Positions 14,057 through 16,590 of a stretch of 22,254 nt of DNA are shown one piece after another (within the stretch, counting starts at the first letter, position 1; each line of letters starts with the position of its first letter). This stretch comes from a virus (Duplodnaviria > Heunggongvirae > Uroviricota > Caudoviricetes). The stretch is from IMG/VR virus record IMGVR_UViG_2529292906_000020, positions 1 to 22,254 of that record, one strand, 5' to 3'. The translations under genes and the position numbers were made by a program. The notes beneath the pieces were generated by a model, which was given only the letters and a program-made list of their open reading frames with translations, did no database searches and was not told the origin of the DNA.

Positions 14057-14560
14057 ATGATCAATAAAGCTACAACTCTTGACTGTCTCGAAGAACTGAA
14101 AAACCTCGGCAGCCTCATTACACTAATAGCAAAAGCAACACCTGATGCTACGCTCTCTAGCGATATAGAGTCATGCGCAGGACTGGCATGGGATATGACA
14201 AATAGCATATCCAGAAAGCTATCGTCAGCAATGCTTTTACAGAACAAAAATTCTGCAATCAACAACCGTCTTCGCACCCAACGCGAAGCCTGCGGCTTAA
14301 CAACCGCCGAACTCGCCAGGCTGCTCGATCTCGATGAAGAAATTATCATCCAGTGGGAGAGCGGAGAGTATGAACCAACTATCAGTATGCTTATCCCACT
14401 GGCAAATATTCTTGGCTGCGATGCGATGTGGCTGTTAACTGGTGAGGTTACTCCTCCGGAGCAACCAAAAAGTGAGGAGCAGCAACACCATGACGCATCT
14501 CAACAAGTTTGCCCCTTATCTCGCGAAGCTCTTCTACGGAAGAACCAATACCAATGGTGA
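14057..14560 (+). CDS. HTH-XRE DNA-binding protein with about 67-aa N-terminal extension (167 aa), first gene of the early-left operon
   Basis: GAGGT 8 nt upstream of ATG; HTH AINNRLRTQREACGLTTAELARLLDLDEEIIIQWESGEYEPTISMLIPLANILGCDAMWLL. Confidence 0.7.
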   Translation: MINKATTLDCLEELKNLGSLITLIAKATPDATLSSDIESCAGLAWDMTNSISRKLSSAMLLQNKNSAINNRLRTQREACGLTTAELARLLDLDEEIIIQWESGEYEPTISMLIPLANILGCDAMWLLTGEVTPPEQPKSEEQQHHDASQQVCPLSREALLRKNQYQW

Positions 14561-14688
14561 CATAATCGCCGCTTCGCCCCTCAAGGTACATGCGAACATT
14601 TTTATCAATCATTGCGGAAACAGTCTTAATATGAAAACACTTCTGAGACTCGCTATATAGCAGAACATATAAGTCAGCTGAGGAAACC

Positions 14689-15054
14689 ATGAAAAAGTTC
14701 GAAAACATAACTGTTCTCCATGTTGATGACTTTGATTATACAAACCCGGAACTTCTCCCGGAGGTTGTAAAGGCAATAGATGTTGCCGATATAGTGATTA
14801 GAGAAAAGAGAATTGTCAAAAACAGGCTCGTATGCACTTCAGGAGCAATGACAGAAACAACCTCACAGCAAGATAATTACGAAGGCATTTGCCTGGAGCC
14901 TGATTCATTTGCGGTAAATGTTTATCATTTATTGCATGCAACACAGGTATTACATATGTCCAGTAATCACGAAACGAAAACACTCGGCAGCGAAATTCTG
15001 AGTTTTGCATGTGAGTATACAAAAGCTGCTGCCGAAAAAGAATTAGCGCAATAA
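14689..15054 (+). CDS. Hypothetical early protein (121 aa)
   Basis: GAGGAA SD before ATG; no recognisable motif. Confidence 0.6.
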   Translation: MKKFENITVLHVDDFDYTNPELLPEVVKAIDVADIVIREKRIVKNRLVCTSGAMTETTSQQDNYEGICLEPDSFAVNVYHLLHATQVLHMSSNHETKTLGSEILSFACEYTKAAAEKELAQ

Positions 15055-15132
15055 CAACAAATATGCCCTGAACGTTTATTGCGGTTTTATCGCCGGGGAT
15101 TGTTACAACCTTAAACCACAGGAGGCTTTATT

Positions 15133-15246
15133 GTGACTTTTATAAAGAATATGGCATCACACAAGACCGCCTGCCTTATTGCACAATACGGTGAAAATTA
15201 CATGCATATTGCCTGCTTATTTCTGCGTAAAGCATACGGGAGATAA
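15133..15246 (+). CDS. Possible small ORF (37 aa, GTG start) just upstream of the acidic 62-aa gene
   Basis: AGGAGG at 7-nt spacing before GTG at 15133; stop 2 nt before next ATG; below the ORF-track length cut-off. Confidence 0.3.
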   Translation: MTFIKNMASHKTACLIAQYGENYMHIACLFLRKAYGR

Positions 15247-15248
15247 TA

Positions 15249-15437
15249 ATGCATCAGAAAACAGCAGAACACGAACAAACCAGAATATTGCTGACCATCA
15301 AAAACGGGAAAGTAATATTCATTCGCCATGTTCATGACGATGAACTTGTAGGAACTCTTTCAACATTCCTGTTTATTGCAGAAAAGGCAGGATATGACGT
15401 TATTGCACCAGCAGATGAAGATGAAGATGAGGAATAA
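15249..15437 (+). CDS. Small acidic protein (62 aa), C-terminal EDEDEE tail
   Basis: GGGAGA SD; strongly acidic C-terminus. Confidence 0.6.
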   Translation: MHQKTAEHEQTRILLTIKNGKVIFIRHVHDDELVGTLSTFLFIAEKAGYDVIAPADEDEDEE

Positions 15438-15442
15438 ATATC

Positions 15443-16024
15443 ATGCAATACGATGAATTCCAGGCTGAAGCAACAGCCAATGGTATACGAACTGGCAGTA
15501 TGACGATTGATTATCACGACGCCATACGTCGTCTGGATGCCGGAGAATTCGATACTCCTAATGTGCGAGGTTTACGTATCCTTCAGTGTCTGGCGCAAGC
15601 CGACGAAGCAGGATTACTGGGTAAACTTCCGGTTGAGATGAAGGTTGCTCAGTGGCGATGGTTGTATGTGACGACATTCATCAACGAAGAAGAAGACAAG
15701 AACGGCACAATTGATATCCTGAATGAACACGGAACAACTGAACACGCCGTGGTATATAACGGGATGTATGGGTTTATGACGATATATCCCGGCCCCATTC
15801 GATTTGCCTTACAACAGTATATTGAATGGAATTTAATTCAAAAATACGGCGAAGCTGAAGGAATGGGAAGAGCGCTGTTTCTTTATCAGAAAATGCTCAC
15901 TACTTCCCCTGATAAAGGTTTCATTCTTTCAGATATGGGTCGAGAAGGGCTTGAAATCCTTCTGGATGAAATTATTAACGAAATGAATACTCATGGCATG
16001 CAATCCGAAACAGATATTAAGTAA
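15443..16024 (+). CDS. Hypothetical early protein (193 aa)
   Basis: GAGGAA SD at 8-nt spacing; starts 6 nt after upstream stop. Confidence 0.65.
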   Translation: MQYDEFQAEATANGIRTGSMTIDYHDAIRRLDAGEFDTPNVRGLRILQCLAQADEAGLLGKLPVEMKVAQWRWLYVTTFINEEEDKNGTIDILNEHGTTEHAVVYNGMYGFMTIYPGPIRFALQQYIEWNLIQKYGEAEGMGRALFLYQKMLTTSPDKGFILSDMGREGLEILLDEIINEMNTHGMQSETDIK

Positions 16025-16034
16025 AAGGGACCAC

Positions 16035-16283
16035 ATGACCGTTATCGAGTATATCCAGGAAAATCCAGATTGCAGTAGAGAAGATATATCCCTCGCACTT
16101 GGAAGAAGCGCAACTTCTATCAGTAATGAATTATCACGGTTATTGTGGAATGGGTTAATAGTACGAACTGGAGAAAAAAACAAAACGATTCTGTACTGCG
16201 TAAACAATCTGCCGTTTGGATACAGCAATCCCCTAAGTGTTATGTTCAACCAGTTACTTAAACAGGTAAGAAATGGCAACTGA
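16035..16283 (+). CDS. Small winged-helix-like protein (82 aa)
   Basis: AAAGGGA before ATG at 16035; segment REDISLALGRSATSISNELSRLLWNGLIVR looks wHTH-like. Confidence 0.5.
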   Translation: MTVIEYIQENPDCSREDISLALGRSATSISNELSRLLWNGLIVRTGEKNKTILYCVNNLPFGYSNPLSVMFNQLLKQVRNGN

Positions 16284-16590
16284 CTCACAACTAACCATAG
16301 AAACGGCCCTGAATGTCGGCCTGGCGCTCCTTGGTTATTTTTACATCGTGTTCTGCAGCGGACGGTGGCTGTCGCTGTTGTTCCTGAAAAAATGGAATAA
16401 ACGCCGTAAGCAGGATGAACGCCAGAAGGCAATGAATGCGTTTTCCGAAGCCTTCGGAATTGACGGCATGGAACCAGGGGATCCAGCTCGCGCAATCAGC
16501 AGAGGGGGTGTAGTAATCCTTGTATATCGGAGTGAAGAGAAAAATGACGATCACAAAACAACGAGTAGAAAAAATCATATATCGCCATGA
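16273..16590 (+). CDS. Small membrane protein (105 aa, one predicted TM helix)
   Basis: Hydrophobic segment LNVGLALLGYFYIVFCSGRWLSLLFL followed by a basic stretch. Confidence 0.5.
   Translation: MATDSQLTIETALNVGLALLGYFYIVFCSGRWLSLLFLKKWNKRRKQDERQKAMNAFSEAFGIDGMEPGDPARAISRGGVVILVYRSEEKNDDHKTTSRKNHISP

Follow-up and report, generated by a model that had tools for sequence, protein, structure and literature searches.

A phiP27-type early-left gene block without a recognisable N gene in an Escherichia coli prophage

The viral record IMGVR_UViG_2529292906_000020 (Caudoviricetes), analysed here over its positions 1 to 22,254 and referred to as the window, is a lambdoid-type Escherichia coli prophage. 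The genes at 14057–16590, which follow the repressor gene cI on the plus strand, are another copy of the published N-less early-left module of phage phiP27 (genes L10 to L06); the arrangement is not new, and nothing in the analysis shows a new mechanism. Homologues of L10, L08, L07 and L06 occur in this order directly after cI and the left operators (OL), with matches to PHROGs 4739, 5451, 340 and 1515 at E values of 1e-22 to 1e-97. The region is probably the immediate-early operon of a phiP27-type, N-less lambdoid E. coli prophage, transcribed leftward from a pL-type promoter.

The block is common. Positions 13900–16900 share 99.7% identity with a prophage of E. coli O7:K1 CE10, which terminates in xis–int adjoining mlrA; of 5426 complete E. 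coli genomes, 117 carry at least 80% of this interval and 1467 carry parts of it. The top match among sequenced phages was PhiR49_2 (99.4% identity, 87% of the query), followed by Shiga toxin (Stx) 1a-converting phages (89%) and the Stx2e phage phiP27 (84.5%). The same gene order at the same place, from cI through the gene of a helix-turn-helix (HTH) protein and L08 onward, is present in phiP27, in Stx1 and Stx2 phages, in ASU11 and PhiR49_2, and in 80 IMG/VR contigs.

Five copies of the 14-bp motif GATACYWHRKTWHC were counted in the window (starts at 13203, 13259, 13974, 14009 and 14038), with about 0.05 copies expected by chance; as the pattern was built from the same sites, the evidence lies in their clustering on both flanks of the S24-type cI gene and not in the count. 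A sixth site, at 13237, is a 15-bp variant. Three copies end directly before the HTH gene, as the earlier note had proposed for OL/pL-like operators, and its further claim of an early-left operon agrees with a tightly packed string of genes that runs from these operators to xis, in a temperate-phage early-left arm under CI/OL control. The candidate pL (Table 1) was read by eye and matches 8 of 12 hexamer positions, a score under the threshold of the promoter scanner, which did list a pR-like promoter (TTGATA-17-TAACAT, 13250–13222, minus strand) beyond cI. Neither promoter-like sites (9, 9.3 expected) nor terminator-like sites (7, 3.9 ± 2.1 expected) exceeded chance in number. No terminator-like site was found on the plus strand of 14057–16355, no convincing intrinsic terminator was predicted from pL to 17000, and an Rfam scan of 13950–19600 detected no RNA family.

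All six open reading frames (ORFs) described in the earlier note are present at the positions and sizes given there. With a 37-amino-acid (aa) ORF that it had missed, the plus-strand string after OL encodes products of 167 (the HTH protein), 121, 37, 62, 193, 82 and 105 aa and continues beyond 16590 to xis. Coding capacity was tested by counting substitutions by codon position and by the ratio of nonsynonymous to synonymous substitution rates (dN/dS) against relatives 71–97% identical in DNA, namely Stx1_14040, phiP27, ASU11, several IMG/VR contigs and two contigs recovered via distant L08 homologues. The listed ORFs are under purifying selection according to these comparisons (Table 1), with two exceptions: neither the final ~38 codons of the HTH gene nor the N-terminal half of the 121-aa ORF passed. 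These two segments, together with the RefSeq annotation, in which the 82-aa ORF is absent and the 121-aa ORF is shortened, could be cited for the view that the listed ORFs, or some of them, are open only by chance, in prophage DNA that is non-coding or degraded. We consider this extremely improbable, and for the bulk of the genes the coding comparisons already refute it: the remaining ORFs combine dN/dS values of 0.04–0.43 with an excess of third-position substitutions against relatives of 74–93% DNA identity, PHROG families are matched at 1e-22 to 1e-97, and long antisense ORFs of the same region show no comparable signature. Substitution patterns in the large antisense ORFs 15929–16495 (188 aa) and 16291–16614 (107 aa) were either flat or mirrored those of the plus-strand genes, and gave no independent sign of coding. 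Database entries with the exact sequences are named "hypothetical", "helix-turn-helix domain-containing", predicted or MarR-family regulator, or "DUF4752", and a literature search by RefSeq protein accession retrieved no papers on the block proteins.

Table 1. Features of the early-left block and its surroundings (positions in the window; substitutions at first/second/third codon positions)
Feature	Position	Strand	Substitutions 1/2/3	dN/dS	Remarks
Q antiterminator	4924-5619	-			early-right arm; Phage_antiter_Q 1.5e-83
Right operators (OR), three copies	13203-13272				on the other side of cI from OL
cI	13294-13953	+			HTH_3 and Peptidase_S24 (3e-22), Pfam
OL, three copies	13974-13987, 14009-14022, 14038-14051				14-bp CI-operator motif
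Candidate pL	13997-14025	+			TTGCTA (13997), 17-nt spacer, TACCAT (14020); overlaps OL2; inferred start ~14032
XRE-family HTH regulator (phiP27 L10 homologue)	14057-14560	+			167-aa ORF; phrog_4739, 1e-97
HTH N-domain			11/3/25	0.13	
HTH core			29/9/125	0.04	
86-aa gene	14708-14448	-			convergent with pL; phrog_6104, 4.9e-48
Ribosome-binding site of 86-aa gene	14719-14716	-			GGAG
Candidate -10 of 86-aa gene	14740-14735	-			TATAAT
121-aa ORF (phiP27 L08 homologue)	14689-15054	+			phrog_5451, phrog_4587
C-terminal half of 121-aa ORF			26/14/61	0.16	
Non-coding stretch ATTACGGTTTTATCGCCGGGGATTGT	15081-15106	+			between L08 and 37-aa ORF
37-aa ORF	15133-15246	+	6/2/11	0.23	GTG start; AGGAGG ribosome-binding site
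62-aa protein (phiP27 L07 homologue)	15249-15437	+	9/6/14	0.43	phrog_340; variable acidic repeat tail
193-aa protein (phiP27 L06 homologue)	15443-16024	+	224/168/577	0.16-0.22	phrog_1515
82-aa putative winged-helix (MarR-like) protein	16035-16283	+	15/11/23	0.24	inside 96-aa ORF; phrog_1687 'MarR family', 9e-24
105-aa DUF4752 protein	16273-16590	+	16/6/43	0.20	PF15944 7e-37, 125.8 bits (cut-off 27), residues 8-90
Distal string	16544-19572	+			104-aa phrog_3126, two Ea22-like genes, DUF551 fragment, DUF4222, 48-aa ORF, excisionase (DUF1233)

The first product of the block is an acidic HTH protein of the XRE family (isoelectric point (pI) 4.7), composed of an N-terminal domain (residues 1–70) and an HTH_3 domain at residues 72–126 (PF01381, 41.6 bits, cut-off 23, 1.3e-10). 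Its description in the earlier note as an HTH-XRE protein with an N-terminal extension, rather than an arginine-rich N-like protein, is thus borne out by domain and charge. Since its gene lies downstream of the true cI, the protein is not the immunity repressor. The survey of alleles covered the window together with 80 loci from IMG/VR and six from annotated phages or genomes; 82 of these have the gene. Across at least seven heteroimmune phage types, the HTH core has the same protein sequence despite DNA differences of up to 19%, and should therefore bind a conserved target. The N-terminal domain (60–95 residues) comes in at least seven types, each paired one-to-one with a cI type (81 loci). 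Block inheritance is the simplest reading of this pairing, because cI is only ~100 bp away from the N-domain; a functional tie of the N-domain to the immunity circuit is possible. As a separate observation, the first gene after cI in a more distant phage (locus L094, 1359–3141) encodes a ~65-aa N-domain joined to an HTH_3 domain, 144 aa in total, and several of the small ORFs downstream look like helical hairpins by eye, which would mean that this domain has multiplied there.

Although the HTH ORF does extend over 167 codons, residues ~130–167 are unconstrained. Read in the HTH frame, the last ~38 residues have a dN/dS of 0.71, and in further alleles the product ends at 138 aa (GKPTGGDTCA) or runs into a second HTH domain; at locus L088, where a two-HTH allele is followed by the antisense gene described below, the same tail is appended. 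The sequence that encodes the tail belongs to an 86-aa gene on the opposite strand, overlooked in the earlier note, in which substitutions by antisense codon position are 7/3/19 against ASU11 and 5/5/16 against L088 (dN/dS 0.12–0.18); in terms of the HTH frame, these substitutions hit second codon positions. The third-position bias in the antisense frame indicates that, as judged from its pattern of substitution, the 86-aa ORF is a real gene, and that the HTH "tail" is read-through into its 3' end. Its ASU11 homologue (76% identical) sits between the HTH gene and L08, filling the gap and overlapping neither of them by more than ~20 nucleotides (nt). The gene is unannotated in RefSeq CE10 and has been deposited elsewhere as a hypothetical protein; a PDB sequence search with the 86-aa protein gave no match.

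The interval between HTH core and L08 is a cassette slot, for which five states were found: 266 nt with the 86-aa gene, 626–628 nt in the phiP27-type alleles, a second HTH domain, 41 nt, and an insertion sequence (IS). In phiP27-type slots (locus L008, 2662–3266; locus L003, 4074–4652), a ~360-nt insertion, which itself encodes an 82-aa ORF on the plus strand and a 75-aa ORF on the minus strand, cuts the antisense gene to 50 aa. The 86-aa gene is probably moron-like and expressed while pL is silent. The single pL-driven operon assumed in the earlier note consequently needs qualification, as the string after OL is indeed tightly packed, but a convergent gene sits between its first two genes.

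The slot invites the view that the HTH gene and the antisense 86-aa gene form a lysogen-expressed cassette (for instance an immunity-linked second repressor, a toxin-antitoxin pair or an exclusion function) and not part of a lytic early operon. Transcripts of cI could enter the HTH gene, there being no terminator-like site between the two; the N-domain travels with the immunity region; the 86-aa gene faces pL, as many lysogen-expressed morons do; the slot has several alternative contents; and HTH_3 proteins are often antitoxins, which here is reflected in weak NCBIfam matches. However, CI bound at OL1, which lies downstream of the inferred transcription start, would prevent read-through. The HTH gene also occurs without the antisense gene, in the second-HTH alleles and at locus L086, so that the two are not an obligate pair, and neither a toxin-like nor a PADLOC signature was found. 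We therefore consider such a cassette improbable and prefer the early operon.

Searches of every plus-strand ORF from pL to int with Pfam, PHROG and NCBIfam models detected no N, Exo/YqaJ, Bet/RecT/ERF, Gam, Kil or CIII, in line with the earlier note, which had recognised no N, Exo/Bet/Gam, Kil or CIII. In Pfam, the plus-strand ORFs of 14057–22254 matched only HTH_3, a weak MarR, DUF4752, Ead_Ea22 (twice), DUF551, DUF4222, DUF1233, an IS3-type transposase and an integrase. No exact boxA (CGCTCTTA) was found, and sites with one mismatch (11, 13.6 expected) did not occur near pL or pR. Windows rich in arginine (at least five in 15 residues) were absent from the start of any real ORF and occurred only out of frame in constrained genes, or in DUF4222. 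A cryptic N was rejected on account of these two negative searches. The N-like Gp17 of mEp021 was likewise discarded as a comparison, being an arginine-rich protein that is not comparable. Since the leader before the HTH gene measures only ~24 nt, and the cro-like gene overlaps the gene that follows it, there is no space for nut sites. Absence of these functions has precedent: P27 is reported to lack N, cII and cIII (Smith et al., PMC3430580), and Eru1 Stx phages, which are devoid of O/P, to lack N, CII and CIII (Llarena et al. 2021, PMC8044961).

According to the reading as an early operon, autocleavage of CI would allow the promoter overlapping OL2 (TTGCTA-17-TACCAT) to fire. The pL transcript would reach xis and the distal genes without N-type antitermination, since nut sites have no room and no convincing terminator is predicted between pL and 17000. 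Its first product would be an XRE-family DNA-binding regulator with ~130–138 functional residues and a conserved target, which we take to regulate early transcription and so to fill part of the gap left by N, CII and CIII. The L08-like hairpin, the 37-aa product, the L07- and L06-like proteins, the putative winged-helix protein and the DUF4752 protein would be conserved accessory early proteins, and the 86-aa antisense gene a separately evolving cassette in the slot between the regulator and the next gene.

Several points weigh against this scheme. The consensus promoter scanner did not list the candidate pL. As no terminator-like site was detected from the cI stop codon (13953) to the HTH start codon (14057), transcripts from the cI promoter may read through and yield some HTH protein in the lysogen. 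We take the regulatory role of the HTH protein from its family membership and its position only; a search for a target dyad in 14540–14900 yielded no convincing candidate, and the pairing of N-domain and cI may be plain linkage over ~100 bp. The absence of N and Kil means absence of detectable similarity, and such proteins are small and diverge fast. Finally, the candidate -10 hexamer of the 86-aa gene reads TATAAC in ASU11, making this promoter uncertain.

The second gene of the string was described in the earlier note as encoding a 121-aa protein, of which only the C-terminal ~65 aa (14857–15054), a two-helix hairpin, are clearly constrained. Its N-terminal half lacks a coding signature (16/16/17 substitutions against L088, dN/dS 0.5–0.7). 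In an AlphaFold 2 (AF2) model, the predicted local distance difference test score (pLDDT) was 74–84 for residues 70–120, which include the hairpin (74–120), and 43–55 for the N-terminal half. The RefSeq product at this locus measures only 68 aa, and Stx phages have a stand-alone version of 66 aa. Downstream of L08, the non-coding stretch ATTACGGTTTTATCGCCGGGGATTGT is nearly invariant across six aligned lineages, whose flanking genes differ by 10–30%; such conservation could reflect a regulatory function, and the stretch is a candidate binding site for the invariant HTH protein.

In Bacillus subtilis, the XRE-type repressor SinR is counteracted by SinI, a small protein with which it has a helical-hairpin domain in common. 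By analogy, the HTH protein and the small protein encoded next to it might be a regulator/antagonist pair of this kind, in which the hairpin, as a detached copy of the domain through which the regulator oligomerises, would titrate the regulator; such a switch at the protein level would replace CII and CIII in the lysis-lysogeny decision. Clear homology links the N-domains of immunity types B, B', D and E to the C-terminal L08 hairpin (BLASTP E values of 9e-10 for the L08 homologue of the window against the HTH protein of PhiR49_2, and of 8e-18 for P0191 against that of ASU11), the two genes are always adjacent and the first after cI, the AF2 model contains the two-helix hairpin at residues 74–120, and in L094 a first gene with the same N-domain and HTH is followed by several small helical proteins. 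On the other hand, similarity between the type A N-domain of the window and L08 was undetectable (BLASTP E value 0.69, hhalign probability 0.3%), the two L08 alleles show no association with the seven N-domain types, which is unexpected for a specific pair and argues weakly against a heteromer of the two proteins, and a Pfam search revealed no sequence similarity to the SinI domain. The likeness to SinR/SinI consists in an HTH_3 regulator with an additional helical domain and in a paralogous hairpin next door in types B, B', D and E; the helical domain is N-terminal in the phage protein, whereas it is C-terminal in SinR, and the analogy is one of function only. We regard such a pair as unlikely and retain the early operon with the hairpin as an accessory protein.

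Informative homology of the products was limited to the generic XRE HTH, a weak winged helix and DUF4752, and their description as uncharacterised in the earlier note thus holds. The 37-aa ORF is annotated in an Stx1 phage and in PhiR49_2. The 82-aa protein scored below the Pfam cut-offs (MarR_2, 21.4 bits, cut-off 27; HTH_24, 19.7 bits, cut-off 21.9). In the 105-aa protein, one hydrophobic segment is located at about residues 12–30, with a Kyte-Doolittle maximum of 1.67 over 19 residues.

The 62-aa protein, whose acidity had suggested a DNA mimic in the earlier note, is charge-neutral in its core, with seven acidic and six basic residues in positions 1–53. The acidic tail corresponds to a GAT/GAA repeat of variable length, in place of which phiP27 and ASU11 have PPAKEQTL. 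The protein gave weak matches to C-terminal parts of two "anti-repressor" PHROGs, and a PDB sequence search found no relative. A DNA mimic comparable to Ocr or ArdA was rejected because of the neutral core and the variable repeat tail, which is missing in diverged homologues; the proposal is thus unlikely to hold, as the acidity is confined to that tail.

The 193-aa protein was predicted by AF2 with a pLDDT of 84.8 and a predicted template modelling score of 0.82, and the predicted fold had no relative in PDB or BFVD; this would neither favour nor exclude an anti-defence role. A word-indexed search retrieved relatives from Escherichia only. An exhaustive profile search returned 104 cluster representatives, mostly of 190–215 aa, and tblastn with a distant member 36 phage records (Escherichia, Klebsiella, Aeromonas and one Elizabethkingia phage). 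At the loci examined, the homologue is located in the cI–int arm, often beside genes resembling ORF6N or BRO antirepressors. Homologues also occur in P4-like satellites (locus L089, 5001–5642; locus L091, 5001–5615) upstream of a DUF927/Toprim primase, the gene order there being int, an AlpA-like gene, a BRO-N protein, small helical proteins, the 193-aa homologue and the primase. By sequence comparison, the family is common to temperate phages and their P4-like satellites. Homologues in Klebsiella phages (e.g. MF695815, 25821–26399) are labelled "2-polyprenylphenol hydrolase" or related flavodoxin oxidoreductase. This name is probably a propagated annotation error, because Pfam found no domain in five family representatives, which comprised distant members, fused forms of 336 and 399 aa and the tblastn query.

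Early-left arms often hold anti-restriction, anti-defence and exclusion genes, and the earlier note had accordingly seen candidates for such roles in the 62- and 193-aa proteins. The block as a whole could then be mainly an anti-restriction, anti-defence or exclusion cluster, with the 62-aa protein as DNA mimic and the 193-aa protein as inhibitor of host immunity. Besides the early-left position, the products are small and acidic (pI 4.6–5.0 for the 62-, 121- and 193-aa proteins), the 193-aa family is found in unrelated temperate phages and P4-like satellites, as takeover genes often are, and its fold is without known relative. Nevertheless, a search of the anti-phage defence models of PADLOC-DB v2 matched only generic HTH parts (RmrA, CapH, CasR, Csa3), and six other proteins of the block, including that of the antisense gene, had no match in this database. 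The tail of the 62-aa protein is variable and absent from diverged homologues, and its core is neutral. A fixed syntenic unit beside cI across heteroimmune phages fits core regulatory or early functions better than counter-defence cargo, which turns over rapidly. The anti-defence or exclusion role is hence unsupported and, for the block as a whole, unlikely, and we maintain the reading as an early operon of mainly regulatory and accessory genes.

An extended version of that reading would have the HTH protein as the early switch itself, its invariant HTH acting on a conserved site of phage or host, its immunity-linked N-domain coupled to the cognate CI/Cro circuit, and its activity tuned by detached copies of that helical domain (the L08 family) and by the convergent 86-aa gene, so as to replace N, CII and CIII; separately, the 193-aa family would serve in host takeover or anti-defence. 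We give this version little credence, about as little as the anti-defence cluster.

The module adjoins the repressor gene in many E. coli prophages, Stx1- and Stx2-converting phages included. If it is true that the HTH protein and its neighbours steer early expression or the choice between lysis and lysogeny, they would influence prophage induction and hence the release of Shiga toxin. What the analysis adds is a corrected gene map, with an antisense gene missing in RefSeq CE10, a shorter functional HTH protein and a doubtful N-terminal half of L08, together with a short list of testable proteins, an HTH protein of modular build whose N-domain is linked to immunity, and a 193-aa family of wide distribution.

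The remainder of the window is that of a lambdoid prophage. The early-right arm, on the minus strand, comprises a small Cro/YdaS-like gene, two Rha-family genes, and genes for a 330-aa protein without Pfam match, an ATP-binding protein, a DnaB-type helicase, DUF968, RusA and the Q antiterminator, the last of which indicates that late control is conventional. About 3 kb from the Q gene, the minus strand carries tRNA-Arg(tct), tRNA-Arg(tcg), tRNA-Met and the small RNA STnc100 (1495–2011) alongside a DNA methylase gene (2061–3110), an arrangement characteristic of late-regulatory regions in Stx-type phages. Rfam matches at gathering level to C4 antisense RNA (11900–11987, 81 bits) and isrK (12012–12088, 62 bits), both on the minus strand, overlap the 5' part of an antirepressor-like gene with Ash and Rha domains (11282–12145) in the early-right arm, and resemble, together with this gene, the RNA-controlled antirepressor modules P1 immI and Gifsy-1 IsrK. 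Between xis and int (21190–22254), an IS3-family element with orfA and orfB is located at 19740–20953 (ALIL frameshift pseudoknot at 20021–20137), which we take to be reminiscent of IS629/IS1203. Similarity to the CE10 integrase begins only at 20995, about codon 19 of the CE10 gene; int is therefore probably interrupted at its 5' end, and excision of the prophage may no longer be possible.

In comparison with known systems, the block resembles the pL operon of lambda in being transcribed away from cI, in its three CI operators, in ending at xis–int and in its Ea22-family genes, and the phage further shares an S24-type CI and a Q antiterminator with lambda. It differs from lambda in the absence of N, boxA/boxB, Red, Gam, Kil and CIII, and in that the first gene encodes a DNA-binding XRE protein instead of an RNA-binding, arginine-rich protein. 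The nearest solved relatives of the HTH protein are the DNA-binding domains of P22 C2 and the 434 repressor, which align with residues 68–132 (E values 4e-05 to 1e-03); the DicA model matches it at 1.5e-12 with 47.5 bits, under the NCBIfam cut-off of 101 bits. In contrast to these regulators, the protein of the window has no S24 or other C-terminal oligomerisation domain, and has an N-terminal domain of ~70 aa instead. Eru Stx phages (PMC8044961, PMC8951638) are similar in having replication genes other than lambda O/P, those of the window encoding the DnaB-type helicase, the ATP-binding protein and the 330-aa protein, and in the Rha-family genes on the far side of cI, just past the small cro-like gene; the papers on them classify the cI-to-stx side and do not describe the int-side genes.

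The closest published system is phiP27 (NC_003356 / AJ298298), the DNA of which is 96.7% identical from cI into the HTH gene, 95–98% in L08, 74% in L06 and 79% over the stretch 14602–16001, with an HTH protein 95.5% identical over 132 aa. It differs in the 626–628-nt slot, which contains L09 and in which an insertion breaks the antisense gene, and in an HTH protein that ends at 138 aa. The same module is found in Stx1a and Stx2a phages integrated at yehV or yecE, in phage ASU11 and in PhiR49_2. Genes distal to L06 differ; the Stx-phage alleles are further distinguished by the second HTH domain and the 66-aa version of L08, and other phages by different cI types combined with different N-domains of the HTH protein.

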